In this document: one piece after another, positions 10,406 to 56,073 of the stretch
Layout: each line of letters starts with the position of its first letter
Numbering within the stretch: the stretch's first letter is position 1
Origin: an uncultured Chromatiales bacterium
GTDB lineage: Bacteria > Pseudomonadota > Gammaproteobacteria > Poriferisulfidales > Poriferisulfidaceae
DNA length: 64,000 bases
Direction of reading: 5' to 3'
Assembly: GCA_964602805.1 (NCBI GenBank)
Contig: CAZRSJ010000004.1
Span: forward strand, 1,604-65,603
The notes under the pieces: model-generated
What the model was told of the DNA's origin: nothing
Databases searched by the model: none
Seen by the model: the letters and a program-made list of their open reading frames with translations, nothing else
Made by a program: the position numbers and the translations under genes

Positions 10406-11416
10406 ATGGACACCTGCGTGGTGGGAGGGGGCATCATCGGTGCGCTCACCGCGCACGCGCTGGCGCAGAAAGGATTCGACGTTCGAGTGCTGGATGCCGA
10501 CAGGCCCGGTGCCGCCACGCCGGTTTCGGCCGGGATCCTGTTTTCCGTTTTCGATCCGACGAGCGATAGCGTTTGGGCGAACCTCGCGCGTCATGGCCAT
10601 GCCGCCTATCCGAAATTGTGTGCGGGCATTGAATCGGAAACCGGATTCGAACGGCGCGGCTTGCTCATTGTCGGCATGGAAGCGAAACAAGCCGAGCAGT
10701 GGGCAAGAGCCAACAAGCTGGATTGTGAAATCTTGACTTCCAGCGAATGCCGCAGGCGCTTTCCACAACTGGCGGCACCCGGGCGCGATGTTGCCCTGAT
10801 GCCGGAGGTGGCCCAGATCGATCCGCCCCGGTTCATGGAGGCGTTCCGCTCCAGGCTTCGGGATGACGGGGTGCGTTGGGAATCTGCCCGGGTTTCCGGG
10901 ATCTTGCAGGACGGGAATCGGGTCCGGGGCGTGAGCAATGGCGAGCAGGAGTGGCAGGCTGAGCAAGTCGTGATTGCGGCAGGCGTCTGGAGCACGGAAC
11001 TCCAACGGGCCGCAGGATCAGGACTGCCGATTCGCCCGCGCCGGGGACAGATCATTGCCTGGCGGTCGGTCGATGCGGGGAACCTGCCGGTCATTTTGGA
11101 TGGCCACCGGTATCTGGTGGTGCGGGAGAACGGCGAAGTGTTGGCGGGGGCGACCAACGAGGATGTGGGATTTGATGCGGGCATCACCGCGCAGGCAAAG
11201 TCAGAACTGACGGACTTCGCTCGGCGCTGGTGCCCGGACTTGCTGGCGGCGGAGCCGGACACGCAAAGGGCAGGTCTGCGTCCGGAAGGAGAAGCCTCTG
11301 GGCCGAGGATTGGTGCGCATGGCGAGATTCAGGGACTGTTTTTCAATACCGGACATTACCGGCACGGGATCGTTTGCGCACCGGGCGCTGCGGCGCAGCT
11401 CGCCGAGGACTTCTGA
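10406..11416 (+). CDS. FAD-dependent oxidoreductase, glycine-oxidase (ThiO)/D-amino-acid-oxidase-like
   Basis: N-terminal GXGXXG Rossmann motif (VVGGGIIGALTA) and a C-terminal GHYRHG motif characteristic of the ThiO/DAO family. 336 aa. Confidence 0.65.
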   Translation: MDTCVVGGGIIGALTAHALAQKGFDVRVLDADRPGAATPVSAGILFSVFDPTSDSVWANLARHGHAAYPKLCAGIESETGFERRGLLIVGMEAKQAEQWARANKLDCEILTSSECRRRFPQLAAPGRDVALMPEVAQIDPPRFMEAFRSRLRDDGVRWESARVSGILQDGNRVRGVSNGEQEWQAEQVVIAAGVWSTELQRAAGSGLPIRPRRGQIIAWRSVDAGNLPVILDGHRYLVVRENGEVLAGATNEDVGFDAGITAQAKSELTDFARRWCPDLLAAEPDTQRAGLRPEGEASGPRIGAHGEIQGLFFNTGHYRHGIVCAPGAAAQLAEDF

Positions 11417-11520: not shown

Positions 11521-12153
11521 ATGGCTTTGTCACAAGAAGAACTTGACGCAATCATGGAGCGAAAGGGCAAGATGCGCCGCGAGGCGTACGATCGTCGTGC
11601 CGCTCAGGAGAACAAAGACGAAATCAGCGCCCAGGCGGTCGCGCGCCTGATGGCCCTGCAGGAGTACCAGGACGCGAAAACCGTCATGTGGTACATCGAC
11701 TGCCGTTCCGAAACCCGCACCAAACCCGAACTGCTTGAAGAAGTGGCCAAGGGCGAGAAGAAAATCGTCGTGCCGTACTGCACGGTGGACGAAAAAGGCG
11801 ACAACAAGCTCGGCCTCTGGCACATGGAGAGCCTGGAAGAAATGGTGGTTGGCAAGTGGAACATCCTCGAGCCGCCGAAGGAGATGTGGGGCAATCCGGA
11901 CAAGGAGCCGCCGGCGGAAGAATTGGACATGGTGATGGTTCCCGGCGTCGGATTCGACCGCACCGGGGGGCGCATGGGCAACGGCCAGGGATACTACGAC
12001 CGCCTGCTTGAGCGGGTCCGCCCGGATTGCTCGCTGGTGGCGCTGTGCTACGAGTCGCAGTTGTTCGACGAGATCCTGGTCGCCCCGCACGACGTGTACA
12101 TGGATTACGTGGTAACCGAAGACGCGGTGTACAAGGGCCGCGGGCGGGACTGA
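11521..12153 (+). CDS. 5-formyltetrahydrofolate cyclo-ligase (MTHFS)
   Basis: 210 aa with the family signature GVGFDRTGGRMGNGQGYYDRLL. Start placed at the Met after an AGGAGAA ribosome-binding site; the six-frame ORF runs further upstream. Confidence 0.85.
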   Translation: MALSQEELDAIMERKGKMRREAYDRRAAQENKDEISAQAVARLMALQEYQDAKTVMWYIDCRSETRTKPELLEEVAKGEKKIVVPYCTVDEKGDNKLGLWHMESLEEMVVGKWNILEPPKEMWGNPDKEPPAEELDMVMVPGVGFDRTGGRMGNGQGYYDRLLERVRPDCSLVALCYESQLFDEILVAPHDVYMDYVVTEDAVYKGRGRD

Positions 12154-12157
12154 GCCC

Positions 12158-13084
12158 ATGCCGGCGCGGATTGACGACACCTACGCAGAGGCGTTCCGCA
12201 GCCTCTACACGGAATTCCTGATCACGGCCCGGGACCAAACCTGGGTCAAACACGCGGTGGATGCCGCGGTCGGCAATGCCGCCAGCACCATTCTGTGCGA
12301 CTGCGAGGCCGGCCTGGATCGTTTCGTGGGGCCGGGCGGGGACGAGTCCTTCGAGACCCCGGACGGTCGTCCCGGCGCCATCGTGCAACTGCATGTCCCC
12401 CGTTTCTGGAAGGACCGGGTAGAAAAGCTGGAGCGGGCCGCACTGGTCCGGATCAGCCAGAATGTGTTGACCTGCCCGACCGCTTCCTGCTTCAACCTGC
12501 TGGATACGGAAGAGTACTACCAGATGGGTCGGAAGGTGGCCTATTTCGGTAATGGCAAGCAACGCCGCATCGAACGTTTCGGACGGAAGATGTGGTGGGT
12601 GCCGATTCTGGGCGGCGAGTTCGTGCTGGATCGCCGGCTGGGTTACGCCGACGGCCTGATGGGCGGCAACCTGTGGTTTTTTGGCAGCGATGCCGATTCC
12701 GCGCTTGAAGCCGCCATGAAGGGGGTCGAAGAGATCGCCAAGAGCCCGGGCGTGGTGATGTGCTTCCCCGGCGGGATCGCGGGATCCGGCTCCAAGCCCG
12801 GCAGCAACTACGAATTCTCGATCGCCAGCACCTACGAGAAATACTGTCCCCTGCTGCAGGACGACCCGGAAGTCGAACAGGGCCTTCCCGAGGGCGTCAA
12901 CTCGGTCATGGAGATCATCATCAACGGGCGCAACCTGGAGACCATCATTCAGGCTACTCGTGCAGCCATCGAGGCTTCCAAAGACACCGAGGGCCTGATC
13001 ATGATCTCGGCCGGCAACTATGGCGGCCGCCTTGGCAAGAACCTGATCTATCTCGATCCGGACAAGCAGCCTCCCATTGAGTGA
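12158..13084 (+). CDS. ftr: formylmethanofuran:tetrahydromethanopterin N-formyltransferase family protein (Ftr/FhcD-like)
   Basis: 308 aa, collinear with archaeal Ftr and bacterial FhcD. Shared segments: ETPDGRPG, VLTCPTA, MWWVPILGGEF, GGNLWFFG, FPGGIAGSGSKPGSNYEF, ASTYEKYCP, LPEGVNSV-EIIING and ISAGNYGGRLGK. 4 bp after MTHFS; overlaps folD by 8 bp. Confidence 0.8.
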   Translation: MPARIDDTYAEAFRSLYTEFLITARDQTWVKHAVDAAVGNAASTILCDCEAGLDRFVGPGGDESFETPDGRPGAIVQLHVPRFWKDRVEKLERAALVRISQNVLTCPTASCFNLLDTEEYYQMGRKVAYFGNGKQRRIERFGRKMWWVPILGGEFVLDRRLGYADGLMGGNLWFFGSDADSALEAAMKGVEEIAKSPGVVMCFPGGIAGSGSKPGSNYEFSIASTYEKYCPLLQDDPEVEQGLPEGVNSVMEIIINGRNLETIIQATRAAIEASKDTEGLIMISAGNYGGRLGKNLIYLDPDKQPPIE

Positions 13085-13940
13085 GTCCGGCCAGCTGATT
13101 GATGGCAATGCGGTGGCGCGCGAAATCCGCGCGCAACTAGCCGAACATCTGGACTCCGCTGCACCGGTAACCCTGGCGACCGTGCTGGTCGGCGAAGACC
13201 CGGCCAGCCAGTTGTATATCTCCCGAAAGATCAAAGAAGCCGGCGAAGCCGGAATTATTTCCCGGCACCAGACGCTGCCGGTGGACATCGCGCAAGACGA
13301 TCTCGTCGAGGCGATTCGCATCTTGGCGCGCGATTCCTCCGTGCACGGAATCCTGGTGCAGATGCCGCTGCCGCCGGCATTGGATGCTGCCGAAGTGCTG
13401 TCGGCCATCCCTCCGGAGAAGGACGTGGACGGCTTGACGGAAACCAATCTGGGCCGCCTCGCAGCCGGGCTTCCCGGGCTTCGCCCGTGCACGCCGTTCG
13501 GCGTGATGGAACTGCTTCGGCACTACCGGATCGCGACTTCCGGTGCGAGCGCACTGGTGATCGGGCGCTCCCGGCTGGTGGGCATTCCGATGGCCCTGAT
13601 GCTGGCCGAGAAGGGGGTGGATGCGACCGTGAGCGTGGCGCACTCGCGCACCCGGGACCTGCAGCAGCTCGCCCGCGAGTCGGATATCTTGGTGGCGGCG
13701 ACCGGTAGCCCCGGGATGGTTACGGCGGATTTCATCAAGCCGGGCGCGGCAGTGTTCGACGTCGGAGTCAGCCGCGTGGACGGGAAGATTCAGGGCGACG
13801 TGCGTTTCGAGGAAGTGCGGGAGGTCGCAGGGTTCGTGACGCCGATGCCTGGCGGCACCGGACCGATGACGGTAGCTTGCCTGTTGCTCAACACGGTTCG
13901 GGCGGCGGCGATGCAGGGCGTGGTTACGCCTTTGCCGTAG
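13077..13940 (+). CDS. folD: bifunctional methylenetetrahydrofolate dehydrogenase / methenyl-THF cyclohydrolase
   Basis: 287 aa with the FolD signatures (YISRKIKEAGEAGI, VQMPLPP, PCTPFGVMELL, VIGRSRLVGIPMALML, PMPGGTGPMTVACLL). Confidence 0.95.
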   Translation: MSESGQLIDGNAVAREIRAQLAEHLDSAAPVTLATVLVGEDPASQLYISRKIKEAGEAGIISRHQTLPVDIAQDDLVEAIRILARDSSVHGILVQMPLPPALDAAEVLSAIPPEKDVDGLTETNLGRLAAGLPGLRPCTPFGVMELLRHYRIATSGASALVIGRSRLVGIPMALMLAEKGVDATVSVAHSRTRDLQQLARESDILVAATGSPGMVTADFIKPGAAVFDVGVSRVDGKIQGDVRFEEVREVAGFVTPMPGGTGPMTVACLLLNTVRAAAMQGVVTPLP

Positions 13941-13945
13941 TCCTT

Positions 13946-13983
13946 TGCGGTTATATTGCGCGACTGCGGTTATATTGCGCGAC
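13946..13983. repeat. perfect tandem direct repeat, 2 x 19 bp (TGCGGTTATATTGCGCGAC)
   Basis: Copies at 13946-13964 and 13965-13983. A TATACT -10-like hexamer lies at about 13992, 13 nt before the tRNA-Glu 5' end. Confidence 0.8.
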
Positions 13984-14010
13984 CCCGGGTGTATACTGAA
14001 AAACAAGCTC

Positions 14011-14085
14011 GCTCCCTTCGTCTAGCGGTCAGGACATCGCCCTCTCAAGGCGGGAACAGGGGTTCGATTCCCCTAGGGAGCGCCA
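14011..14085 (+). tRNA. tRNA-Glu (anticodon CUC)
   Basis: 75 nt. Acceptor stem GCTCCCT/AGGGAGC. Anticodon loop CTCTCAA (CTC). T-arm AGGGG-TTCGATT-CCCCT. Encoded CCA. Near-identical scaffold to E. coli tRNA-Glu. Confidence 0.85.
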
Positions 14086-14250
14086 TCGCCCATCCTTCTT
14101 TTTTGCGCCACTCAGTCTCTGGGTGATGGGGGCGGATACAGGCGCTCTTCGGATGATCCAGACACGCTTGGCGAAGAAGAAGTCGATTTGGTGAAATCCC
14201 TGCTCTGTGGCATATTACGCGCCTAGCGGGCTGGCGACGGGTGCTTTAAA

Positions 14251-14290
14251 AAAGCCGCCTGCCCCTATGGCCGCTCCGGCGGCTTTTTTG
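14251..14290 (+). terminator. rho-independent terminator-like hairpin (A-tract, GCCGCC...GGCGGC stem, T-tract)
   Basis: AAAAAAGCCGCC-(15 nt loop)-GGCGGCTTTTTTG. It could terminate the folD/tRNA-Glu transcript ahead of the sga promoter. Confidence 0.55.
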
Positions 14291-14354
14291 TGACGGCGCG
14301 GGCGCTGTGGTGCCCGGCGTTCGTCTTTATCCATCAACAGAAAAGGACTTTCTT

Positions 14355-15635
14355 ATGCCCGCTGAAAAACTTGTCTTTCCTGGCCGCAACTATCTCTACG
14401 CGCCAGGCCCTACGCATATTCCGGTCGAGGTTCAGAACGCCATGGTCGTCCCGATGGAGGACCATCGGGCACCCGATTTCCCCCAACTGGTCAAACCCCT
14501 GCTGCGCGACCTGAACAAGATCTTCAAGACCCGCACCGGCAAAAGCTTCATCTTCCCTGCCACCGGCACGGCCGGCTGGGAAGTGGCTCTGACCAACACC
14601 CTGTCGCCGGGCGACCGCGTCCTGACTGCCCGTTTCGGGCAGTTTTCGCATCTGTGGGCGGATCTGGCCCAGCGCATGGGCCTGGACGTGGAACTGGTGC
14701 AGGTGAAGTGGGGCGAAGGCGTGCCGCTGAAGCAGTTCGAGCAGATCCTGAGAAAAGACAAGGAGCATAAGATCAAGGCAGTGCTGGCCTGTCACAACGA
14801 GACCGCGACCGGGGTCACCAGCAACATTGCGGGCCTGCGCCGGGCCATGGACCGGGCCAAGCATCCGGCCATGCTGATGGTCGACGGCGTCAGTTCCATC
14901 GCGAGCATCGATTTCCGCATGGACGAGTGGAAGGTCGACGTGGCCGTATCCGGTTCGCAGAAAGGCTTCATGTTGCCGGCCGGCATGGCGCTGGTGTGCT
15001 TCTCGCGCCGTGCACTGGCGGCAGCCAAGACCGCCAAGTGCAAGCGTTGCTTCCTGGACATTGCCGACCATATCGCGACCAACAAGGACGGGTTCTTCCC
15101 GTACACCCCCTCGGCGCCGATGCTGCGCGGCCTGCGCGCTTCCATCGACCTGCTGCTCGGGGAAGGCCTGGAGAACGTGTTCCAGCGCCACCACCGGCTG
15201 GCCGAAGGCGTGCGCCGGGCCATTGGCGGATGGGGCCTGGACCTGTGCGCAGCCGAACCGAAATGGTATTCCGACACGGTGTCGGCCATCAAGGTTCCAA
15301 GAAACGTCAATGCTGCCGAAGTGATTCACATCGCCTATCACCGCTACAACATCTCGTTGGGTGCCGGCCTGTCCGAGGTCGCCGGCAAGGTGTTCCGGAT
15401 CGGCCATCTAGGCGACAACAACGAAGTGCGCATGATGGCGGCTCTCGGCGGCGTCGAGATGGCAATGCGCGACGCTGGCATGAAGGTGCGCCCCGGCTCG
15501 GGCGTGGCAAAAGCGGTTGAGTACTATTGCGACACCGCGAAAGGCAAGAAGAAGATCCCTGCATTCGGCGCCGCCAAAGGCCCTCGCGAGACCGCGGTCA
15601 AGAAGAAAGCAGCGCCCAAGCGCAAGAAGAAGTAA
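14355..15635 (+). CDS. sga: serine--glyoxylate aminotransferase (class V aminotransferase)
   Basis: Class V fold with the PLP-lysine region (VAVSGSQKGFMLPAGMALV) and strong resemblance to methylotroph SgaA. Start at the Met that follows a stop-free leader; the ORF track begins at 14307. It has an unusual ~30-aa Lys/Ala-rich C-terminal tail (KKKAAPKRKKK). Confidence 0.85.
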   Translation: MPAEKLVFPGRNYLYAPGPTHIPVEVQNAMVVPMEDHRAPDFPQLVKPLLRDLNKIFKTRTGKSFIFPATGTAGWEVALTNTLSPGDRVLTARFGQFSHLWADLAQRMGLDVELVQVKWGEGVPLKQFEQILRKDKEHKIKAVLACHNETATGVTSNIAGLRRAMDRAKHPAMLMVDGVSSIASIDFRMDEWKVDVAVSGSQKGFMLPAGMALVCFSRRALAAAKTAKCKRCFLDIADHIATNKDGFFPYTPSAPMLRGLRASIDLLLGEGLENVFQRHHRLAEGVRRAIGGWGLDLCAAEPKWYSDTVSAIKVPRNVNAAEVIHIAYHRYNISLGAGLSEVAGKVFRIGHLGDNNEVRMMAALGGVEMAMRDAGMKVRPGSGVAKAVEYYCDTAKGKKKIPAFGAAKGPRETAVKKKAAPKRKKK

Positions 15636-15645
15636 GAGGTCCTGA

Positions 15646-16587
15646 ATGAGCCACACTCAAGCCACCCCCGCGCCGACCCGCCTGCAGCGCAGCGAGCTGG
15701 CGGTCCCGGGCTCCAATCCGGCCCTGTTTGAAAAGGCGCTGAACTCCGAAGTCGACTACGTCTTCCTGGACCTGGAGGATGCAGTCGCGCCGGGCGACAA
15801 GGAACAGGCTCGGGTCAATGTCATCCAGGCCCTGCTTGACCTGGACTGGCGAGGGGCGGGGAAAACCATCTCGGTTCGGATCAACGGGCTCGACACTCAC
15901 TACATGTACCGCGACGTAGTGGATCTGATGGAACAGGCGGGTGACCGTCTGGACACGATCCTGATCCCGAAAGTCGGAGTGCCGTCGGACGTCTACATGG
16001 TCGAGGCGATGGTGAACCAGATTGAACAGGGGAAAGGCTTTGAGACCCGGGTCGGCCTGGAAGCCCTGATTGAGACGGCCCTCGGCATGGCCAACGTCGA
16101 GGCGATTGCCGCCTACGGCGGACGCCTGGAGGCCCTGCACTTCGGGGTGGCGGACTACGCTGCTTCCAACCGCGCGCGTACAGTCAACATCGGCGGGCTC
16201 AACCCCGACTATCCGGGAGACCAGTGGCATTTCGCTCTGTCCCGCATGACGGTGGCCTGTCGGGCGTACGGCCTGCGGGCGATCGACGGACCATTCGGCG
16301 ACTTCAAGGATCCGGACGCCTATCGGGCGGCAGCACGCCGCGCCGCTGCACTCGGGATCGAGGGCAAGTGGGCGATTCATCCGTCCCAGATTGAACTGGC
16401 CAATGAGATCTTCTCTCCGCCGGAGGCGGAAGTGGACCGGGCCCGGCGAATCCTGAAGGAACTGGAGATCGCGGCGGCGGAAGGCCGGGGCGCGGCCGCC
16501 GTCGACGGCAAGATGATCGATGCGGCATCGGCACGGATGGCCGAAAACGTGGTGCGTTTGGCGGAAGCGATCGCCGCACGCAGCTAA
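15646..16587 (+). CDS. mcl: malyl-CoA lyase (HpcH/HpaI aldolase-citrate lyase beta family)
   Basis: 313 aa with an LAVPGSNP-type N-terminus, the DLEDAV active-site region and a GLEALIET motif typical of Mcl/MclA. Located between sga and the mtk genes. Confidence 0.85.
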   Translation: MSHTQATPAPTRLQRSELAVPGSNPALFEKALNSEVDYVFLDLEDAVAPGDKEQARVNVIQALLDLDWRGAGKTISVRINGLDTHYMYRDVVDLMEQAGDRLDTILIPKVGVPSDVYMVEAMVNQIEQGKGFETRVGLEALIETALGMANVEAIAAYGGRLEALHFGVADYAASNRARTVNIGGLNPDYPGDQWHFALSRMTVACRAYGLRAIDGPFGDFKDPDAYRAAARRAAALGIEGKWAIHPSQIELANEIFSPPEAEVDRARRILKELEIAAAEGRGAAAVDGKMIDAASARMAENVVRLAEAIAARS

Positions 16588-16603
16588 AACGAGGACAAAC
16601 AAC

Positions 16604-17776
16604 ATGCATATACATGAATACCAGGCCAAGGAAGTCCTGGCCAACTACGGGATCCAGATTCAACCGGGAACCTTGGTATACAGCCCCGACCAGGCGGTCG
16701 CGGCCTACAACTCCCAAGGGTCCACGGTGTGCGCGGTCAAGGCGCAGATTCATTCTGGTGCCCGCGGCAAGGCTGGAGGTATCCGCCTGTGCCGGAGCAA
16801 CGACGAGGTACGCCGTGCCGCCGATGAAATGCTTGGCGAGAAACTGGTGACCCACCAGACGGGGTCGACCGGCAAGCTGGTTCAAAAACTGTATGTCGAG
16901 GCGGGGGTCGACATCGACCGCGAAATCTATTTGGCATTCGTACTGGACCGGGCCAAGCAGCGGCATGTCGCCGTCGCGTCCGCCGAGGGGGGTATGGAGA
17001 TCGAGCAACTGGCCCAGGAGAAGCCGGAGAGCATCCTGCGCATCAGCATCGACCCGGCGTCCGGCATGCGCCACTTCCAAGCGCAGGAACTCGCTTTCGG
17101 GCTGGGCCTGGAAGCCGATCTGGTCAAGCAGGCGGTGGCCACGTTCCGCGGCTTGTACAAGGCGATGATCGAACTGGATGCCAGCATGGTCGAGATCAAT
17201 CCATTGGTGGTGACCCGGGATCGGCGCCTGATCGCCTTGGACGCCAAGATGGAATTCGATGACAACGCGCTGTTCCGCCACCGCGAGGTGGCCGAGTTGC
17301 GCGACATGTCGCAGGAGGATCCGCGCGAGACCGCGGCCTCCGACCACGACCTCAGTTACGTCGGCCTGGACGGCGACATCGGCTGCATGATCAACGGCGC
17401 CGGGCTGGCCATGGCCACCATGGACATGATCAAGCTGTCCGGCGGCGAGCCGGCCAACTTCCTCGACATCGGCGGCGGCGCGTCGCCGGAGCGAGTGGCC
17501 AAGGCGTTCGAACTGGTGCTGCAGGATGGCAATGTCAAGGCCATGCTGGTCAACATCTTTGCCGGAATCAACCGCTGCGACTGGATCGCCGAAGGCCTGA
17601 TCAAGGCACTGGGCGTGGTCGACCTCGGCGTGCCCCTGGTGGTGCGCCTGTCCGGCACCAATGTGGAGGAGGGCACCCAGATGCTGGTCGACAGCGGGCT
17701 GCCCATCATCATGGCCGACACGCTGGCCGATGCCGCCCAGAAGGCGGTAGCGGCCGCGCAAGGACAGGGAGAATGA
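16604..17776 (+). CDS. mtkA: malate--CoA ligase (malate thiokinase) beta subunit, succinyl-CoA-synthetase-beta-like
   Basis: ATP-grasp N-terminus (MHIHEYQAKEVL, KAQIHSGARGKAGG) and C-terminal CoA-ligase domain (GCMINGAGLAMATMD). Start at the Met at 16604; the ORF track begins upstream at 16520. Confidence 0.85.
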   Translation: MHIHEYQAKEVLANYGIQIQPGTLVYSPDQAVAAYNSQGSTVCAVKAQIHSGARGKAGGIRLCRSNDEVRRAADEMLGEKLVTHQTGSTGKLVQKLYVEAGVDIDREIYLAFVLDRAKQRHVAVASAEGGMEIEQLAQEKPESILRISIDPASGMRHFQAQELAFGLGLEADLVKQAVATFRGLYKAMIELDASMVEINPLVVTRDRRLIALDAKMEFDDNALFRHREVAELRDMSQEDPRETAASDHDLSYVGLDGDIGCMINGAGLAMATMDMIKLSGGEPANFLDIGGGASPERVAKAFELVLQDGNVKAMLVNIFAGINRCDWIAEGLIKALGVVDLGVPLVVRLSGTNVEEGTQMLVDSGLPIIMADTLADAAQKAVAAAQGQGE

Positions 17777-17780
17777 CACG

Positions 17781-18668
17781 ATGTCGATTCTGATCAACAA
17801 AGACACCAAGATCCTGATCCAGGGCTTCACTGGCCGGATCGGAACCTTTCATGCCAAGGAGATGCTGGAATACGGCAGCAACGTGGTCGGGGGCGTCACA
17901 CCGGGGAAAGGTGGACAGGCGCACCTGAATCTGCCGGTGTTCAACACCATCAAGGAAGCAGTCGATGCAACCGGCGCAACGGCCAGTATCGTGTTCGTAC
18001 CCGCAGCCGCGGCCGCCGACTCGATTATGGAGGCCGCCGACGGCGGCATCAAGTATTGCGTGGCGATCACCGATGGCATCCCGGCTCAGGACATGATCCG
18101 CGTCAAGCGCTTCATGCTGCGCTATCCGAAGGAACGCAAGATGATCCTGACCGGACCCAACTGCGCAGGTTCCATCACGCCGGGCGAAGCGATGCTCGGC
18201 ATCATGCCAGGCCATATCTACGAGCCAGGTCGGGTTGGCGTGGTCGGACGTTCCGGCACGTTGGGCTACGAGGCCGCCTCGCAAATGAAGGCTGAAGGCA
18301 TCGGTATCTCGACCAGCATCGGGATTGGCGGCGACCCGATCAACGGCAGTTCGCACCGCGACATCCTAGAGCTGTTCGAGCAGGACCCCGACACGGACGC
18401 GGTCATGATCATCGGCGAGATCGGCGGCCCGCAGGAAGCGGAAGCAGCGGAATTCGCCCGTGACCATATGACCAAACCGGTCGCGGCCTACGTGGCCGGG
18501 CTGACTGCCCCGAAAGGGCGTCGCATGGGTCATGCCGGAGCCATCATTTCCGGGAAAGGCGAGAGTGCCTCGGAGAAAGTCGAAATCTTCCAGGAAGCCG
18601 GCGTGGCGATCGTGCCGAACCCTTCCGAATTCGGCACCACCATGAAAGACGTTGTGTCCAAGCTCTAA
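17781..18668 (+). CDS. mtkB: malate--CoA ligase alpha subunit (succinyl-CoA-synthetase-alpha-like)
   Basis: CoA-binding Rossmann fold (ILIQGFTGRIG), the phospho-His loop region (SIGIGGDPINGS) and LGYEAASQ motifs of SucD-like alpha subunits. Confidence 0.85.
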   Translation: MSILINKDTKILIQGFTGRIGTFHAKEMLEYGSNVVGGVTPGKGGQAHLNLPVFNTIKEAVDATGATASIVFVPAAAAADSIMEAADGGIKYCVAITDGIPAQDMIRVKRFMLRYPKERKMILTGPNCAGSITPGEAMLGIMPGHIYEPGRVGVVGRSGTLGYEAASQMKAEGIGISTSIGIGGDPINGSSHRDILELFEQDPDTDAVMIIGEIGGPQEAEAAEFARDHMTKPVAAYVAGLTAPKGRRMGHAGAIISGKGESASEKVEIFQEAGVAIVPNPSEFGTTMKDVVSKL

Positions 18669-18677
18669 GGAGGCTGC

Positions 18678-19649
18678 ATGTCAAAACCCAAAGTCATTGC
18701 CACGCGTCGCTGGCCGGAGCCGGTCGAGGCGCATCTGTTCGAGCACTACGATTTCACGCTCAACGAAGATGACCACCCGATGAGCGTGGACGAGCTGCAT
18801 CAGGCTCTGCGCGAGTACGATGCGGTCTGCCCGACCGTGACGGACCCGATCACTGCCGAGGTACTCGGCATTGACGGCATCCGCGCGAGAATCCTGGGCA
18901 ATTTCGGCGTGGGCTTCAACCATATCGACTTGGACGCAGCCAAGCAGGCTGGCCTCGTGGTGACCAATACGCCGGAAGTCCTGACCGACTGCACCGCCGA
19001 TATCGCCATGAATCTGTTGCTGACCGCCGCCCGCCGCACCGGCGAAGGCGAACGGCACCTGCGCGCCGGGGAATGGGCCGGTTGGCGCCCGACCCACATG
19101 CTGGCGACCAAGGTCACCGGCAAGACTCTGGGCTGCGTCGGCTTCGGCCGCATCGCCCAGGCCATGGCCCAGCGCTGCCATTTCGGTTTTGGCATGAAGG
19201 TGATCTTCCATGACCCGTACCCGCCGAAGCCGGAAATCGTGGAAAAATTCCAGGCGACTGCCTGCAATTCGGTCGAGGAAGTGCTGGAGCAGGCCGATTT
19301 CATATCCCTGCATTGCCCGGGCGGCGAATCGACCTACCACCTGATCAACGATGAGCGCCTGGCCCGGATGAAATCTTCCGCCATACTGGTCAATTCCGCA
19401 CGAGGCGACATCATCGACAACCAGGCCCTGATCAAGGCGTTGAAGAATGGCACCATCGCGGGGGCCGGGCTCGACGTCTTCGAAGGCGAACCCAAGCTCG
19501 ACCCGGGATTTTTGGGTCTCGAGAATGCGGTTCTGGTGCCGCACCTCGGAAGCGCATCGACCGAAACCCGGATCGCCATGGGCATGCGGGTGGTCGAGAA
19601 CCTGGATCTGTTCTTCTCTGACCAGGAGCCGCGCGACCGCGTCGCCTGA
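18678..19649 (+). CDS. hprA: hydroxypyruvate reductase / glycerate dehydrogenase (D-isomer-specific 2-hydroxyacid dehydrogenase)
   Basis: NAD-binding GXGXXG (LGCVGFGRIAQAMAQ) and catalytic Arg/Glu/His region (SARGDIID, VLVPHLGSAS). The serine-cycle context supports an HprA assignment. Confidence 0.8.
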   Translation: MSKPKVIATRRWPEPVEAHLFEHYDFTLNEDDHPMSVDELHQALREYDAVCPTVTDPITAEVLGIDGIRARILGNFGVGFNHIDLDAAKQAGLVVTNTPEVLTDCTADIAMNLLLTAARRTGEGERHLRAGEWAGWRPTHMLATKVTGKTLGCVGFGRIAQAMAQRCHFGFGMKVIFHDPYPPKPEIVEKFQATACNSVEEVLEQADFISLHCPGGESTYHLINDERLARMKSSAILVNSARGDIIDNQALIKALKNGTIAGAGLDVFEGEPKLDPGFLGLENAVLVPHLGSASTETRIAMGMRVVENLDLFFSDQEPRDRVA

Positions 19650-19678
19650 GCACCCGCTCCGGGATCGGCCCCGCCTGC

Positions 19679-22381
19679 ATGCCGTCCGACGTCGCCGCTT
19701 CTGCCGATCGCCCGGAAGACCGTATACGCGTCGACACCCTGCGCTATACCGAGAGTATGGTGCAGCAGTTGGGCGGGCTGCTGCTGGAAGTCATTCGCCG
19801 CCGCACCCCGGAAATCGTCCCGCTTCTTGAAAGCCGAGGACAAATAACCTCGGAGACCCGGTTGCGGGTTCTCCAGGCCTACGGGATCGGCTTCCAACTG
19901 TTCAATATCGCCGAGCAGAACGCGGCAATCCGGCATCGCCGGGCAATCGAGGACGAACTCGGGCCGCAACAGGTTCCCGGTTCTTTTTCTGCCGCGCTCG
20001 CGCATGCCCGCGCTGTTGGGCTTGACGCTGAAGCCGTTCGCGACCGCCTGCGGGGCGCGCAGGTCGTGCCGGTGCTGACGGCGCACCCGACCGAGGCCAA
20101 GCGGGTGACGGTGCTGGAAATCCACCGACGCATCTACGTGCTGCTCAAAGAACTGGAAGAAACCCGCTACACGGAGCGGGAGCGCCAGCGCATGATCGAT
20201 GCCATCAGCGACGAGATCGACCTGCTGTGGATGACTGGAGAAATTCGCTTGACCAAACCGACCGTGCCGGAAGAAGTCGCGTGGATTCTCCACTTCTTCG
20301 ACGAATCACTCTACCGCGGCGCGCGGGACCTGTTCTGGCAGTTGTCGCAGGCGCTAGAGGAGCACTATCCCGACGCGCAGTTCGAGACGCCGCCGCTGCT
20401 CCACTTCGGTTGCTGGGTCGGTGGCGATCGCGACGGCAATCCCCACGTGACGCCCGAGGTGACCCGGGAGGCCCTCGACGGCTACCGGGAAGCCGCACTG
20501 TCGCACCTGTCCCGGCAGATGGCCGAGGCCCGAAGCCGGCTGTCTATTGCCGCCCATGCGGTGACGGTGCCGGCAGAGTTCTTGTCGCGGCTGGACGTGA
20601 TGCTGGGTGGGCAGGAGGACGCCAAGGCGCTGCGCGCCCGCAATCCCCAGGAAGTATTCCGGCAGTACCTGAACCTTTTGATGCGCCGCCTCGAAGCCAC
20701 CCAAAATGAGGCGCCGGATGGATACGCCAACGCGACCGAACTGGTGGATGACCTAAAAGCCTTGGAGAAAGGTCTACGGGAAACCGATTGCGGCTCCATC
20801 GCCGACTTGCTGGTGCGCCCGCTGCGCTTGGAAGCGCAAGTATTCGGTTTTCATACCGTGAGCCTGGACATTCGCGAGAACAGCACCGTGATCAACAACA
20901 CTCTGGCGGCCCTGTATCGCCAGATGGAAGGGGAGGAACCGCCGGAGCCGGGCAGCGAGGCATGGCGGGAATGGTTGAAGCGGCGGCTCGCCGAACCCAT
21001 GGAAACCCTCCCCGAATTTGAACTCGGGGATGAGATGGCACAGCGCACCCTGGAGCTGTTCCAGTTGCTCGGCGAGATCGCGGTCCGGCGCGGGATGGAG
21101 CCGTTCGGGGCCTTCATCCTGAGCATGACGCACACGTCGGCGGATCTGCTCGGGGTGTATCTCCTTGCCAAGTACGGCGGGCTGTTTTCCGATCTCAAGA
21201 ACTGTGAAACCTGCCGCCTGCCGGTGGTGCCGCTGCTGGAGACGATCGACGACCTGCGCCGGGGACCCGTGTTGCTGCGCGAGATGCTGGATGTCCCGAT
21301 GGTGCGCCGCAGCGTCCGCGCCGGCCCTGGAGTCATGGAGGTCATGGTCGGGTATTCCGACTCCAACAAGGATGGTGGATTTCTGTGCTCCAACCATGAA
21401 GTGTCGCTGGCCCAGGCCCGAATGCGCCGGGTGGGCGAGGAGCGCGGCGTGCCGGTGGCGTTCTTCCATGGACGCGGCGGATCTTCGTCACGCGGCGGGA
21501 TGCCGGCGGGTCGCGCGATTGCCGCCCAGCCGCCGGGCACTATCGGGGGGCGGATGCGCCTGACCGAGCAGGGCGAAGTGGTGTCGGGAAAATACGCGAA
21601 CCGCGGCTATGCGGAAACGCAACTGGAGATCCTGGCGGCCAGCGTACTGGAACATTCCCTGCCTGGAGACGAGGATCGCCACCCCGGGTTCGAGGAGGCG
21701 ATGGAGGCCTTGTCGAAGCTGTCGTACACCGCCTACCGGAAACTGGCCGACCACCCTGGCCTGGTCATGTTCTACCAGGATGCCTCGCCGGTCGAGGAGC
21801 TGGCGTTGCTCAAGATCGGTTCCCGCCCGATGCGCCGGTTCGGCGCCAATACTTTGGACGACCTGCGTGCCATCCCTTGGGTGTTTGCCTGGACGCAGAA
21901 CCGGATGATGGTTCCGGGCTGGTACGGCGTAGGGGATGCCATTACGGAGTTCATCCGGGTGCGGGGTGAGGCCGGTGAAAAACTTTTGCGCGAGATGTTC
22001 GAGCAGCACCGCCTGTTCCGATTGGTGATCGACGAAGTGGAGAAGACCCTGTTTCAGGTTCAACTTGACATTGCGCGGGATTACGCTGCATTGGTCCCGG
22101 ATCCCGAGGTGGGGGCCGAGATTTTTGCCATGATTGAGCAGGAATACGAGCGGACCTGTGAGGCCGTGCTTCGGGTATCTGGCAGCGAGGCTCTGTGCGA
22201 CCGTTTCGTGATGTTCAGCGACCGCCTGTCGCGGCGGCTGCCGATCATCGACCGGGTCAGTCGCGAACAGGTCGAACTGATCAAGCTGTGCCGGAGCCAA
22301 GAGCGTCCGGAGACTTTGGACTTGGTTCCACTGCTGCTGTCGATCAACTGCGTGGCGGCCGGGTTGGGCTGGACCGGTTGA
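19679..22381 (+). CDS. ppc: phosphoenolpyruvate carboxylase (serine-cycle-associated copy)
   Basis: 900 aa with the PEPC signatures VLTAHPTEAKR, GCWVGGDRDGNPHVT, FHGRGGSSSRGGMPA and AIPWVFAWTQNR. Confidence 0.9.
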   Translation: MPSDVAASADRPEDRIRVDTLRYTESMVQQLGGLLLEVIRRRTPEIVPLLESRGQITSETRLRVLQAYGIGFQLFNIAEQNAAIRHRRAIEDELGPQQVPGSFSAALAHARAVGLDAEAVRDRLRGAQVVPVLTAHPTEAKRVTVLEIHRRIYVLLKELEETRYTERERQRMIDAISDEIDLLWMTGEIRLTKPTVPEEVAWILHFFDESLYRGARDLFWQLSQALEEHYPDAQFETPPLLHFGCWVGGDRDGNPHVTPEVTREALDGYREAALSHLSRQMAEARSRLSIAAHAVTVPAEFLSRLDVMLGGQEDAKALRARNPQEVFRQYLNLLMRRLEATQNEAPDGYANATELVDDLKALEKGLRETDCGSIADLLVRPLRLEAQVFGFHTVSLDIRENSTVINNTLAALYRQMEGEEPPEPGSEAWREWLKRRLAEPMETLPEFELGDEMAQRTLELFQLLGEIAVRRGMEPFGAFILSMTHTSADLLGVYLLAKYGGLFSDLKNCETCRLPVVPLLETIDDLRRGPVLLREMLDVPMVRRSVRAGPGVMEVMVGYSDSNKDGGFLCSNHEVSLAQARMRRVGEERGVPVAFFHGRGGSSSRGGMPAGRAIAAQPPGTIGGRMRLTEQGEVVSGKYANRGYAETQLEILAASVLEHSLPGDEDRHPGFEEAMEALSKLSYTAYRKLADHPGLVMFYQDASPVEELALLKIGSRPMRRFGANTLDDLRAIPWVFAWTQNRMMVPGWYGVGDAITEFIRVRGEAGEKLLREMFEQHRLFRLVIDEVEKTLFQVQLDIARDYAALVPDPEVGAEIFAMIEQEYERTCEAVLRVSGSEALCDRFVMFSDRLSRRLPIIDRVSREQVELIKLCRSQERPETLDLVPLLLSINCVAAGLGWTG

Positions 22382-22421
22382 CGCCCACATCATTTAAAAT
22401 TCGCCGATCTTGGAAGGACCC

Positions 22422-23282
22422 ATGAAGAAACTGCTCTTTCATCTGGACACGGACGCCCAGCCATCCGCCTTCGACCAGGTGGTCGCCTACGATGGAGGCG
22501 CGGATGCCGTCCTGGCCTACGGCGGGATCACTGCCGACAACTGCTTCTCGCTGGTGGAAGGTGCGATCTTCACCCGCGCGCCGAAAAACAAGCGCTATAC
22601 CGCGATCCTGATCGGCGGCAGCGACCTGGCACAGGCCGAAGCCCTCATGGACACCGTGAAGTCCCAGTTTTTCCAAGGTTTCCGGGTGTCGTTGATGATG
22701 GACGCCAATGGCTGCAACACTACCGCGGCGGCGGCGGTCGCGATGCTGGGCGCCGCGCATCCGCTTGAAGGCTCCAGCGCGACGGTGCTGGCCGGAACCG
22801 GGCCGGTTGGCCAGCGCGCCGCGGTCATGTTGGCGCAGTCGGGAGCCCAAGTGCGCCTGACTTCACGCAAACTGGAGCGCGCCCAGCAGGCGTGCGAGGG
22901 AATTTCGGAGCGCTATGGCGTGGCGGTGGAACCCATGGCGGCATCGGATGCGGCCGGGACGGCCGCCGCGGTCGAAGGCGCGGCCATCGTCCTGGCTACG
23001 GGTCAGGCCGGGGTGCAGTTGCTGCCGACCGAAATCTGGCAGGCGTCGTCCAGCCTGCGTGCGGTCGGGGATGTGGGAACTTGCCCGCCTCTGGGCGTGG
23101 AGGGCATGGACATGACCGATGGCGGTCGAGAAGTTGGCGGAATCTCCCTATTTGGCGGGCTGGCCTTTGGGGCCTTGAAACTCCGAACCCACCGCGAGGC
23201 GATCTCGCGGATGTTCGAGAGCAACGATCAGGTTTGGGATGCCGAGGAGACGCTGGCCCTGGCCCGCGAGCTTTACGACTGA
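22422..23282 (+). CDS. mtdA: NADP-dependent methylene-tetrahydrofolate/methylene-H4MPT dehydrogenase
   Basis: 287 aa. From memory it appears collinear with Methylobacterium MtdA (KKLLF-DTDA-PS-FD-VV-YDGGAD, GCNTTAAAAVAML, VLAGTGPVGQRAA, LKLRTHREAISRMFES). Start taken at the second Met. Confidence 0.8.
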   Translation: MKKLLFHLDTDAQPSAFDQVVAYDGGADAVLAYGGITADNCFSLVEGAIFTRAPKNKRYTAILIGGSDLAQAEALMDTVKSQFFQGFRVSLMMDANGCNTTAAAAVAMLGAAHPLEGSSATVLAGTGPVGQRAAVMLAQSGAQVRLTSRKLERAQQACEGISERYGVAVEPMAASDAAGTAAAVEGAAIVLATGQAGVQLLPTEIWQASSSLRAVGDVGTCPPLGVEGMDMTDGGREVGGISLFGGLAFGALKLRTHREAISRMFESNDQVWDAEETLALARELYD

Positions 23283-36642: not shown

Positions 36643-37947
36643 ATGGCCAAAAAACTGTTTAACCGCCTGTCCGATGCCGTAAAAAAGCGCACTAACGGCA
36701 ATCCCCGGGTCGTGGAGGCTGACGAGCACGGCATCAATCCTTCGGAAGTTTCCAGGTCCGCCCGGCGCGTGGTGGAAGTCCTGGTGGAGGGAGGCTACGA
36801 GGCCTATATCGTCGGGGGCGGCGTGCGCGACCTGATGCTGGGCCTGCACCCGAAAGACTTCGACATCGCCACGGACGCCCGCCCCGAACAGGTGAAGAAC
36901 CTGTTTGATCGCTGCCGCATCGTCGGCCGGCGATTCCGGCTTGCGCACGTGTATGTGGGTCGGGACCTGATCGAAGTCGCGACGTTCCGGGGCGGGCACC
37001 GTTCGCGCTCCGGGCGCGCCCATGTCTCGGTGACCTTGGGAGGGCGAATCCTGCGCGACAACGCGTACGGGACGATTGATCGCGATGCGCTGCGACGGGA
37101 TTTCACGGCCAATTCCCTGTTCTACGACCCGATCCGGAACACCGTGCTGGACTTCGTCGGTGGCGTGGAGGATCTGAAGCAGCGCCGCCTGTGCATGATC
37201 GGCAAGCCCGCAGTGCGTTTCCGCGAGGACCCGGTACGGTTGCTGCGCGCGGTGCGTTTTGCGGCCAAGCTCAACTTCCGGATGGATCCGGCCATGGAGC
37301 AATTGATCCCCGAACTAGCGGATCTGCTTGATGCTATTTCACCGGCCCGGCTGTTCGACGAAGGCATTAAGCTCCTGCATAGCGGCGCGGCCGAGCGCAC
37401 GTTTGAGCTATTGCACGAGAAAGGATTGCTGCATCAGTTGTTCCCGCGCACGGAGGCGGCTTTGGAGCGGGACCACCCGGAAGACTTGGAGTTCATCCGC
37501 TTGGCGTTGGCGAACACAGACGAACGGGTGCGTTCGGGCATGCCGGTCTCCCCGGCTTTCGCCTACGCAGTATTGATGTGGCCGTATGTGCGCCAACTGC
37601 TGGATGAACTGGAACCGGGGGAATTCAGCCCTCGCGATGCGTTGGCGATTTGCGCCGACCGGGCCTTGGAGCATCAGGCGCGGACCATCAGCATCCCGTT
37701 TCGCCATGCCCAGATGATCCGAGAAATCTGGATTCGCCAGCCGCAGTTGGAAGCAGGCCCGCGCAGTCACCCCGAACGGGTGATGTCGCGCAGCGCATTC
37801 CGTGCGACGTATGATTTCCTCGGGTTGCGCGCGCTGAGGGACGAGCGGTTACAGGGGGCTTACCAGGCCTGGACACGAGCCCAGGAAAAATACGAGGTAG
37901 GGCCCCGCGACGCCCCCCGCCGCCGTCGCCGCCGTCGGCGGAGGTGA
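36643..37947 (+). CDS. pcnB: poly(A) polymerase I
   Basis: Nucleotidyltransferase head (GGGVRDLMLG, DFDIAT) and the Arg-rich C-terminus typical of PcnB. Confidence 0.9.
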   Translation: MAKKLFNRLSDAVKKRTNGNPRVVEADEHGINPSEVSRSARRVVEVLVEGGYEAYIVGGGVRDLMLGLHPKDFDIATDARPEQVKNLFDRCRIVGRRFRLAHVYVGRDLIEVATFRGGHRSRSGRAHVSVTLGGRILRDNAYGTIDRDALRRDFTANSLFYDPIRNTVLDFVGGVEDLKQRRLCMIGKPAVRFREDPVRLLRAVRFAAKLNFRMDPAMEQLIPELADLLDAISPARLFDEGIKLLHSGAAERTFELLHEKGLLHQLFPRTEAALERDHPEDLEFIRLALANTDERVRSGMPVSPAFAYAVLMWPYVRQLLDELEPGEFSPRDALAICADRALEHQARTISIPFRHAQMIREIWIRQPQLEAGPRSHPERVMSRSAFRATYDFLGLRALRDERLQGAYQAWTRAQEKYEVGPRDAPRRRRRRRRR

Positions 37948-39137
37948 CCGTGCCTCAAGGAGACATCTACATCGGGCTCGGCAGCAATCTGGACGGACCG
38001 ACCGAGCAAGTCCGCTCCGCAGTGCGCGAACTGGGGCAACTGGCCCAGGTTCGCCTGTGCGCCTCTTCGGGCCTGTACCGAAGTCCGCCAATGGGTGGGC
38101 TGGACCAGCCGGACTATATCAATGCGGTCGTGCAGGTCGAAACCGACCTGGAGCCCGAGCAGCTGCTTCACGAACTGCAAGTGATCGAGCGTCAACACGG
38201 GCGAAAGGAACAACGCGAGCGCTGGGCATCGCGGACATTGGACTTGGACCTGCTCTTGTGGGGGCAGGAATGTTTTGACAGCAAGGTCCTGACGTTGCCG
38301 CATCCGGGCCTACATGAGCGGGCGTTCGTACTGGCTCCGCTGCAGGAACTGGACGCGAATCTGGAGGTGCCCGGGCGGGGCACGGTGTCGAAGTTGCTGC
38401 GGGAGTGCCAGTATTCCCGGGTGGACCGGGTGGGGGCCTGCCAAAGCCTGCCCGACTCGGCACGCCTGATCGCGGTGGAAGGGCCAATAGGTGTCGGCAA
38501 GACCACGCTGTGCAACCGTCTCGCAGCTGATTTCAACGGCCGGTTGATGCTGGAGAACTACCAGGAAAACCCTTTCCTCAAAGATTTTTTCGAAGCCCCT
38601 GAAAAAACGGCTCTGGCAACCCAGTTGCATTTCCTGACCAGCCGGGCCTGCCAGTTACAGCAATTGAACCAAGTGGATCTGTTCCAGCAGCGCACCTTCT
38701 CGGATTACGTGTTCGAAAAAAGCGACTGGTTTTCCCGGCTATCGCTTCAGGGCGACGAATATGACCTGTGGCTCAGCCTGTTCACTCATATGTCCGCCGG
38801 GCTTCCACGTCCGGACTTGGTTATCTACCTGCAGGCACCGGTGTCGGTTTTGCTGGAGCGGATTGCGATGCGGGGGCGGTCATTCGAGCGCGCGGTGCGT
38901 CCGGAGTTCCTGGAGGCGCTGTCGGCATTGATGGCGGAACACTTTCGCCATTACTCCGGAACCGTACTGACGGTCGATACTTCTTGCGCCAATCTGGCGG
39001 AAAGCCTTCAGGACTACCAGAGCCTGCTGGTTGCACTGGATGGCATGACCCAACCCGGCCAGTATTTCCTGGACCCGAGCCAACCGGAGGGAATGCTGGG
39101 TGACATGATTCCAGCCGATTCGATGACGCAGGCATGA
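37944..39137 (+). CDS. folK: fusion protein: N-terminal HPPK domain (2-amino-4-hydroxy-6-hydroxymethyldihydropteridine pyrophosphokinase) plus C-terminal deoxynucleoside-kinase domain
   Basis: Residues about 8-165 match FolK (IGLGSNL, DQPDYINAVV, RWASRTLDLDLLLWG, PHPGLHERAFVL). Residues about 175-397 carry a dNK P-loop (IAVEGPIGVGKTTL), an ENPFL motif and the LID region. There is no stop between the two halves. GTG start overlapping the pcnB stop. Confidence 0.75.
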   Translation: MTVPQGDIYIGLGSNLDGPTEQVRSAVRELGQLAQVRLCASSGLYRSPPMGGLDQPDYINAVVQVETDLEPEQLLHELQVIERQHGRKEQRERWASRTLDLDLLLWGQECFDSKVLTLPHPGLHERAFVLAPLQELDANLEVPGRGTVSKLLRECQYSRVDRVGACQSLPDSARLIAVEGPIGVGKTTLCNRLAADFNGRLMLENYQENPFLKDFFEAPEKTALATQLHFLTSRACQLQQLNQVDLFQQRTFSDYVFEKSDWFSRLSLQGDEYDLWLSLFTHMSAGLPRPDLVIYLQAPVSVLLERIAMRGRSFERAVRPEFLEALSALMAEHFRHYSGTVLTVDTSCANLAESLQDYQSLLVALDGMTQPGQYFLDPSQPEGMLGDMIPADSMTQA

Positions 39138-56006: not shown

Positions 56007-56073
56007 TATACCGGGCTGGTCCGAGCCCCGATCGTGCCGAAACAGCCCCGGATTCAAGGGGCCAGCAGAGGGT

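Follow-up and report, generated by a model that had tools for sequence, protein, structure and literature searches.

How should a gene of the Ftr/FhcD family, a type of gene routinely read as a marker of methanofuran/tetrahydromethanopterin (H4MPT)-dependent one-carbon (C1) metabolism, be understood when it is embedded between two genes of folate metabolism? This question is raised by a 64,000-nt stretch of contig CAZRSJ010000004.1 from an uncultured Chromatiales bacterium, referred to here as the window, in which three densely packed genes follow a 104-nt spacer on the + strand: a 5-formyltetrahydrofolate cyclo-ligase gene (MTHFS, 11521-12153), a divergent Ftr/FhcD-family formyltransferase gene of 308 aa (12158-13084) and folD (13077-13940), which encodes a methylene-tetrahydrofolate (H4F) dehydrogenase/methenyl-H4F cyclohydrolase with the domains PF00763 and PF02882. 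In the sequence, the MTHFS ATG has an AGGAG ribosome-binding site about 8 nt before it, 4 nt separate the MTHFS stop from the Ftr ATG, and the Ftr stop and the TTG start of FolD overlap by 8 nt, the FolD gene call being identical in sister contigs. These distances bear out the translational coupling to both folate enzymes that had been proposed in a first-pass annotation of this DNA. The MTHFS-Ftr pair, as argued below, points to an undescribed route by which formyl groups would enter the folate pool and the serine cycle, and no description of the pair or of the clade to which its second member belongs was found in the literature.

The product of 12158-13084 is a genuine member of the Ftr/FhcD family by fold, domains and catalytic residue. 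It holds FPGGIAGSGSKPGSNYEF, LPEGVNSV and ISAGNYGGRLGK, the segments from which its Ftr-like character had first been recognised, and recognised correctly. Both Ftr lobes are full-length, with Pfam FTR (PF01913) matched at 1.8e-39 over positions 7-142 of the 142 in the profile and FTR_C (PF02741) at 1.3e-46 over 1-146 of 149, and the scores are far above the gathering scores. The NCBIfam subfamily PRK02114 is matched with 306.2 bits, above its cut-off of 297. Furthermore, the PDB chains 1m5h, 1m5s and 1ftr are matched at E-values of about 1e-60 to 1e-64, and the M. extorquens FhcD chain 6s6y_D at 2e-45. An AlphaFold model of the protein (pLDDT 93.7) aligns in Foldseek with 1ftr, 1m5s and 1m5h at TM-scores of 0.88-0.92 and a root-mean-square deviation of 1.7-1.8 Å, and with 6s6y_D at a TM-score of 0.87, while the next match reaches about 0.2-0.3. 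Glu252, which lies in the motif VMEIIING, is aligned with Glu245 of 1ftr (M. kandleri Ftr) and is invariant in alignments of 31 and of 173 sequences; this glutamate (Glu245 in M. kandleri, Glu252 in M. extorquens FhcD) stabilises the oxyanion intermediate (PMC6926001). The ratio of nonsynonymous to synonymous substitutions (dN/dS) is 0.03-0.10 for the Ftr-like gene and 0.04-0.08 for MTHFS, which indicates strong purifying selection, and the idea that the Ftr-like gene might be a pseudogene or relic was rejected on its values. Because the catalytic glutamate is retained and dN/dS is low, the enzyme looks functional, and it probably performs Ftr-like chemistry, the transfer of a formyl group from a formamide to N5 of a pterin.

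These features are also what an ordinary formyl-methanofuran/methylofuran:H4MPT formyltransferase would display, whether an FhcD or a free-standing Ftr, with the other genes of its H4MPT-linked pathway of formaldehyde oxidation located elsewhere in the genome. MTHFS and FolD would then merely be clustered C1 neighbours, the former clearing 5-formyl-H4F. This explanation, which we consider unlikely overall while leaving it an appreciable share of the probability, accommodates the two full-length domains, the Ftr fold, the catalytic glutamate and the PRK02114 score. Every database name given to members of the clade defined below also states that activity, all of them being the automatic 'formylmethanofuran--tetrahydromethanopterin N-formyltransferase', and the two phyla in which the clade occurs are each known for H4MPT and methanofuran (PMC5020050).

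The relationship of the window protein to characterised enzymes speaks against such a conventional role. In a search of 1.84 billion representatives, one full-length neighbour was retrieved at about 64% identity, from a Planctomycete group, and none further above 44%, while canonical Ftr/FhcD sequences are typically ~40-55% identical to characterised enzymes. In a neighbour-joining tree, the window protein, its orthologues and the Planctomycete sister make up a separate long branch (50/50 bootstraps), and the window protein does not group with characterised FhcD; the phylogenetic comparison called for in the first-pass annotation thus resolves a tight and distinct clade, 36-45% identical to characterised Ftr and FhcD. 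One candidate for a deep branch of this clade, P0155 (a JGI contig of 4211 nt serving as a 50%-cluster representative), was rejected as a frameshifted ordinary clade member, and it was discarded, given that it would mislead a tree. When clade-specific residues were scored against 42 canonical sequences, Arg22 of M. kandleri Ftr, an arginine in 93% of the canonical set, was found to correspond to Glu19, a glutamate in 100% of the clade. In addition, the clade has two insertions of its own, GGDE at 60-63, just before the ETPDGRPG motif, and KDR at 85-87.

Two characterised systems offer the closest comparison. Archaeal Ftr (1FTR/2FHJ, 1M5H, 1M5S) shares with the window protein its two-lobe fold, its length, the catalytic Glu245 equivalent and the conserved motifs ETPDGRPG, FPGG..SGSK and AGNYGG, and it is likewise encoded by a free-standing gene outside any four-subunit operon. 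However, the window protein is only 42-45% identical to it and falls in its separate clade, with the reversal of Arg22 to Glu and the two insertions, and its gene is bacterial and coupled to MTHFS and to folate and serine-cycle genes, not to the fwd, mch and mtd genes of methanogenesis. The FhcD subunit of the M. extorquens FhcABCD complex (6S6Y; PMC6926001) is, like the window protein, a bacterial Ftr-family member associated with methylotrophy genes and has the equivalent catalytic Glu252, but the identity is 36%, the window protein scores 281.7 bits against the FhcD equivalog TIGR03119, below the cut-off of 292.6, and no fhcA, fhcB or fhcC lies beside its gene. The expectation that bacterial Ftr homologues normally reside in fhc operons agrees with what is seen in related Gammaproteobacteria, which encode a canonical 298-aa FhcD inside fhcB-A-D-C adjoining mptG-mtdB-mch-fae; this FhcD represents another lineage, only 38% identical to the window protein.

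The absence of fhcA, fhcB and fhcC noted in the first-pass annotation extends across the whole window, in which tblastn detected none of these genes and no mch, fae, mptG, mfnB or other gene of an H4MPT island. The H4MPT-island proteins used as queries matched just two genes, mtdA and the Ftr-like one, and Pfam scans of the other large open reading frames of the window likewise revealed no H4MPT or methanofuran genes. Judged by equivalog score, fhc operon linkage and tree position, the window protein would not be classed as FhcD, and the scenario in which it is the sole FhcD of an Fhc complex with dispersed genes is weakened. Its pterin partner is probably different from that of Ftr.

Which partner this might be is suggested by the gene that accompanies it. 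Within a species-representative genome set that gave 372 matching stretches, 80 species-level genome loci were compared together with 21 metagenome loci, 101 in all. Of the 77 genome loci with a readable upstream region, 74 have MTHFS immediately 5' of the Ftr-like gene and on the same strand, and MTHFS also directly precedes Ftr in all such metagenome loci (19/19). In 73 of those 74 genome loci, the two genes are spaced by -4 to +20 nt, and TAATG, TGATG and ATGA overlaps are common. By comparison, 58 of the 80 genome loci have FolD directly 3' of Ftr, at a spacing of -11 to +185 nt, and some members of the clade lack FolD or have it separated from Ftr. What is conserved is therefore the unit MTHFS-Ftr and not MTHFS-Ftr-FolD; of the gene order that the first-pass annotation had singled out, the first two members hold and the third is variable. 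As to the partner itself, the MTHFS of the window is predicted to be a canonical folate enzyme by its score and motifs, with PF01812 at 4e-39, 128.8 bits to TIGR02727 (cut-off 84.9), a full-length alignment to the PDB MTHFS structures 1sou and 2jcb, and the GxGxGYYDR motif intact.

The clade is carried by two phyla, namely marine sponge-associated and pelagic Gammaproteobacteria and Planctomycetes, and it is the second of these that separates the pair from its usual surroundings. On Planctomycete-type contigs, MTHFS and Ftr occur without any other C1 gene, flanked by EamA, TrpA, sigma-70, patatin, sulfatase, PhoD, WD40 and pilus genes, which implies that the two form a self-contained unit. The MTHFS of these contigs is 62-77% identical to that of the window, which is read as a sign that MTHFS and Ftr were co-inherited, and a deep member of the clade (L118, 64%) is paired with MTHFS in the same way. 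Genes 5' of the module in relatives are unrelated housekeeping genes, for example ilvD or an iron ABC transporter. Clustering of C1 genes, on which the ordinary formyltransferase reading relies, fails to explain why MTHFS is coupled to Ftr on contigs that have neither a serine cycle nor any other C1 gene, and none of the 101 loci has fhcA, fhcB or fhcC beside the Ftr-like gene (within 8-10 kb).

A Planctomycete sister lineage departs from this pattern, having a stand-alone gene without MTHFS (P0121, ~63%; loci L087-L090, with the gene at 10001-10939 in L087). This stand-alone gene is always preceded by a gene for a protein of 166-257 aa without a Pfam match. The possibility that this upstream protein might be a divergent MTHFS was rejected, as it has no similarity to MTHFS.

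Ftr enzymes produce or consume N5-formyl pterins, and MTHFS converts one such pterin, 5-formyl-H4F, to 5,10-methenyl-H4F in an irreversible, ATP-consuming reaction. Because the two co-translated enzymes share exactly one plausible metabolite, and users of methenyl-H4F are encoded downstream, a sequential pathway is suggested. It could well be, at a confidence just short of probable, that the Ftr-like enzyme makes N5-formyl-H4F and that MTHFS converts this with ATP to methenyl-H4F for FolD or MtdA and the serine cycle. In such a scheme, a formamide-type donor would provide the formyl group that the Ftr-like enzyme attaches to N5 of a tetrahydropterin, likeliest H4F, to yield 5-formyl-H4F. Formyl-methylofuran or formyl-methanofuran would be the most economical candidate donor, and a small N-formyl amine an alternative. 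The co-translated MTHFS would then cyclise 5-formyl-H4F irreversibly to 5,10-methenyl-H4F at the expense of one ATP, pulling the transfer forward, after which FolD and/or MtdA would reduce methenyl-H4F to methylene-H4F, and serine hydroxymethyltransferase would feed the latter into the serine cycle encoded downstream. What the data show is family membership, fold and catalytic glutamate, a distinct clade under purifying selection, the conserved coupling of MTHFS to Ftr, and their setting ahead of folD and the serine cycle; which pterin and which donor are used, and in which direction the flux runs, are the inferred parts of this scheme. Formyl transfer between H4MPT and methylofuran is near equilibrium, at +4.4 kJ/mol (PMC6926001), and the ATP-driven pull of MTHFS would for that reason set the direction.

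The MTHFS-Ftr pair would thereby do the job of FtfL plus Fch at equal ATP cost and without free formate. In the FtfL-Fch-MtdA route of M. extorquens, which leads from formate through 10-formyl-H4F and methenyl-H4F to methylene-H4F with FtfL as formate-H4F ligase and Fch as cyclohydrolase, the enzymes belong to the same type of gene cluster (sga, hpr, mtdA, mtkAB, ppc, mcl), and, on the reading proposed here, methenyl-H4F would likewise be delivered for one ATP. In contrast, the cluster of the window contains neither ftfL nor fch, and entry would proceed through N5-formyl-H4F and MTHFS from a formamide donor rather than through N10-formyl-H4F from free formate. Extended to the clade as a whole, it is a tentative suggestion, and one we would call possible rather than probable, that its members constitute an H4F-specific N5-formyltransferase which, with its dedicated MTHFS, provides an unrecognised ATP-driven entry of formyl groups to the folate pool. 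Such an entry might act in the assimilation of N-formyl compounds, or else it might directly connect formaldehyde oxidation in the H4MPT/methylofuran branch with the H4F/serine-cycle branch, with no need for free formate, FhcABC or FtfL. The first-pass annotation proposed a link between the H4F and H4MPT/methanofuran branches, or a paralogue with a folate-type substrate. The near-obligatory coupling to MTHFS at about 100 loci in two phyla and the distinct clade with its own insertions and deletions lend this proposal more plausibility, so that it is partly supported.

Several considerations weigh against a folate-directed enzyme. Characterised Ftr/FhcD enzymes use H4MPT, not H4F. Moreover, 5-formyl-H4F is a side product and an inhibitor of serine hydroxymethyltransferase, so that MTHFS has an independent reason to be present in a serine-cycle operon. 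Two of the features that set the clade apart are also not tied to the pairing with MTHFS, because the stand-alone Planctomycete sister P0121 carries both Glu19 and GGDE. As regards the donor, the Fhc of M. extorquens binds methylofuran tightly as a prosthetic group (PMC6926001), and a cofactor bound in this way would be an awkward diffusible donor.

A single genome places the module directly in an H4MPT context. In the complete metagenome-assembled genome CP070821.1 (locus L095, 4290-20980), the module is divergently oriented beside hpr, a sga-like aminotransferase gene and a complete H4MPT island comprising mptG, mtdB, mch, fae, ATP-grasp and CitG-like genes and the furan-cofactor gene MfnB. 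The module occupies the mptG side, at which relatives (L091, L093, L097) have fhcBADC, and fhcB-A-D-C is not found at its conserved position next to mptG in this island. This arrangement is compatible with a bridge in which the formyl group of formyl-H4MPT or formyl-methylofuran would reach H4F without passing through formate. The same island, with its H4MPT genes and MfnB beside the module, is also a point in favour of an ordinary Ftr. In L100, a 92% relative of CP070821.1, mtkAB is located at that place and no H4MPT genes lie within 10 kb, and among the 101 loci no other than CP070821.1 has H4MPT genes near the module. Among the best 120 cluster representatives listed, the only Mch or FhcA match on a module-bearing chromosome was the Mch of CP070821.1; at rank 120 of the matches listed, FhcA was still 67-70% identical, even to Burkholderiales, and ten FhcA clusters were expanded; the lack of further matches was for this reason not taken as a sign that the genes are absent.

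The H4MPT island beside the CP070821.1 module also bears on a further possibility, that both enzymes of the pair act on H4MPT. The Ftr-like enzyme would make N5-formyl-H4MPT with formyl-methanofuran as donor, and the MTHFS homologue would be an ATP-driven 5-formyl-H4MPT cyclo-ligase that replaces or reinforces Mch in the reductive direction, after which MtdA would reduce methenyl-H4MPT. Although this would keep the known substrate of Ftr, would still join the two enzymes through an N5-formyl pterin and would suit the dual specificity of MtdA, the partner scores as a canonical bacterial folate MTHFS with the usual motifs, the next gene, FolD, encodes a folate enzyme, CP070821.1 already carries mch, and Mch readily works in both directions without ATP. 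This proposal consequently seems very improbable.

The shared metabolite could be put to another use as well. FTCD-type glutamate formyl/formimidoyl-transferase interconverts 5-formyl-H4F plus glutamate with H4F plus N-formylglutamate, which is the one well-known reaction that exchanges a formyl group between a formamide and the N5 position of H4F; the chemistry is that proposed for the Ftr-like enzyme, but the fold and family are unrelated. By analogy, MTHFS with ATP and the Ftr-like enzyme with an amine acceptor might dispose of 5-formyl-H4F in parallel, as a detoxification unit for high flux through serine hydroxymethyltransferase. Such a unit would follow the same shared-metabolite logic as a sequential pathway and would suit the serine-cycle neighbourhood seen in Gammaproteobacteria. 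It is given very little credence here, however, as two enzymes would be redundant for one clearance task, the pair is retained where no serine cycle is nearby, and translational coupling this tight is more usual for enzymes that catalyse consecutive steps or form a complex.

Downstream of the module, the window encodes a serine-cycle gene cluster on the + strand at 14355-23282 (sga, mcl, mtkAB, hpr, ppc and mtdA), the order of which is kept in most gammaproteobacterial loci. The first gene, sga (14355-15635), whose start was adopted from a 426-aa gene call in L002, encodes a serine-glyoxylate-type class V aminotransferase (PF00266; 589 bits to an NCBIfam BhcA-like model, below the cut-off of 650), and mcl (15646-16587) a malyl-CoA lyase-type HpcH/CitE aldolase, assigned from PF03328 at 8.9e-40 and its conserved cluster position. 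The two malate thiokinase-type CoA ligase subunits, mtkA (16604-17776) and mtkB (17781-18668), are assigned from the conserved order and from the domains of the identical L002 genes, ATP-grasp_2/Ligase_CoA and CoA_binding/Ligase_CoA. They are followed by hpr (18678-19649), a hydroxypyruvate reductase-type 2-hydroxyacid dehydrogenase gene with PF00389/PF02826 on the identical L002 gene and a conserved order, and by the serine-cycle copy of ppc (19679-22381), which encodes a phosphoenolpyruvate (PEP) carboxylase of 900 aa with PF00311 on the identical L002 gene. The last gene of the cluster encodes an MtdA-type NADP-dependent methylene-H4F/methylene-H4MPT dehydrogenase (22422-23282; PF09176 Mpt_N, 1.3e-28), with 283 bits to the M. 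extorquens MtdA structures 1lu9/6tge. That an MtdA accepts methylene-H4MPT as well as methylene-H4F is a further point on the side of an ordinary H4MPT formyltransferase. The genes tkt-gap-pgk-pyk-fba come next after mtdA.

Between folD and sga, a spacer of about 0.4 kb (13941-14354) contains a terminator-like hairpin on the + strand at 14269-14284, with a T-run to 14294, found by a consensus scan only, and this hairpin may close a three-gene MTHFS-ftr-folD transcript. The spacer is a variable insertion site, which in sister Porisulfidus strains (L001, 11784-16623; L008-L013) is filled by 3-7 kb comprising two PIN/antitoxin pairs together with a Peptidase_S8 gene. The insertion of toxin-antitoxin and peptidase genes there is consistent with a boundary between transcription units. 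On the other side of the module, directly 5' of MTHFS, lies a gene for a ThiO-like FAD glycine oxidase (10406-11416, +; TIGR02352 213.7 bits, below the cut-off of 250.8), which might supply glyoxylate from glycine for the serine cycle. It was rejected as a member of the unit, being found in the Porisulfidus lineage only, with ilvD at that place in other lineages. Over the module region, the window is 99-100% identical to contigs of Candidatus Porisulfidus, a gammaproteobacterium associated with sponges, and the GC content of the window is high, at about 0.62. An origin from a phage family or mobile element was rejected, since there is no PHROG match and the composition is uniform across the region.

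Several other genes of the window are of interest in their own right. A second PEP carboxylase of 977 aa is encoded on the - strand at 53181-56114 (PF00311, 1024 bits), which gives two copies within 35 kb. A 3442-aa open reading frame at 42405-52733 (+) encodes a type I polyketide synthase with the domain order KS-AT-DH-methyltransferase-ER-KR-ACP followed by a second KS-AT, which presumably resembles the 'sponge-symbiont ubiquitous' (Sup/Swf-type) polyketide synthases tied to methyl-branched fatty acids. Between pcnB and panB-panC, one open reading frame (37944-39137, +) combines HPPK (folK) at residues 9-137 with a deoxynucleoside-kinase domain at 176-361; it represents either a fused gene or two separate genes called as a single one. 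Near the end of the window, genes for an AbiEii-type nucleotidyltransferase toxin (56074-57099, -) and a Schlafen AlbA_2/HATPase_c_4 protein (62103-63845, -) may possibly serve in defence or as toxin-antitoxin components.

To conclude, the union of a hallmark enzyme of methanofuran/H4MPT metabolism with a folate salvage enzyme in about 100 loci is an arrangement that specialists would not expect. If the proposed function is true, it would supply the first physiological, anabolic role of MTHFS beyond the salvage of dead-end folate, and a missing link by which the H4MPT and H4F branches of methylotrophy could exchange carbon without formate. The metabolic reconstructions of many marine Gammaproteobacteria and Planctomycetes would then need to be corrected.

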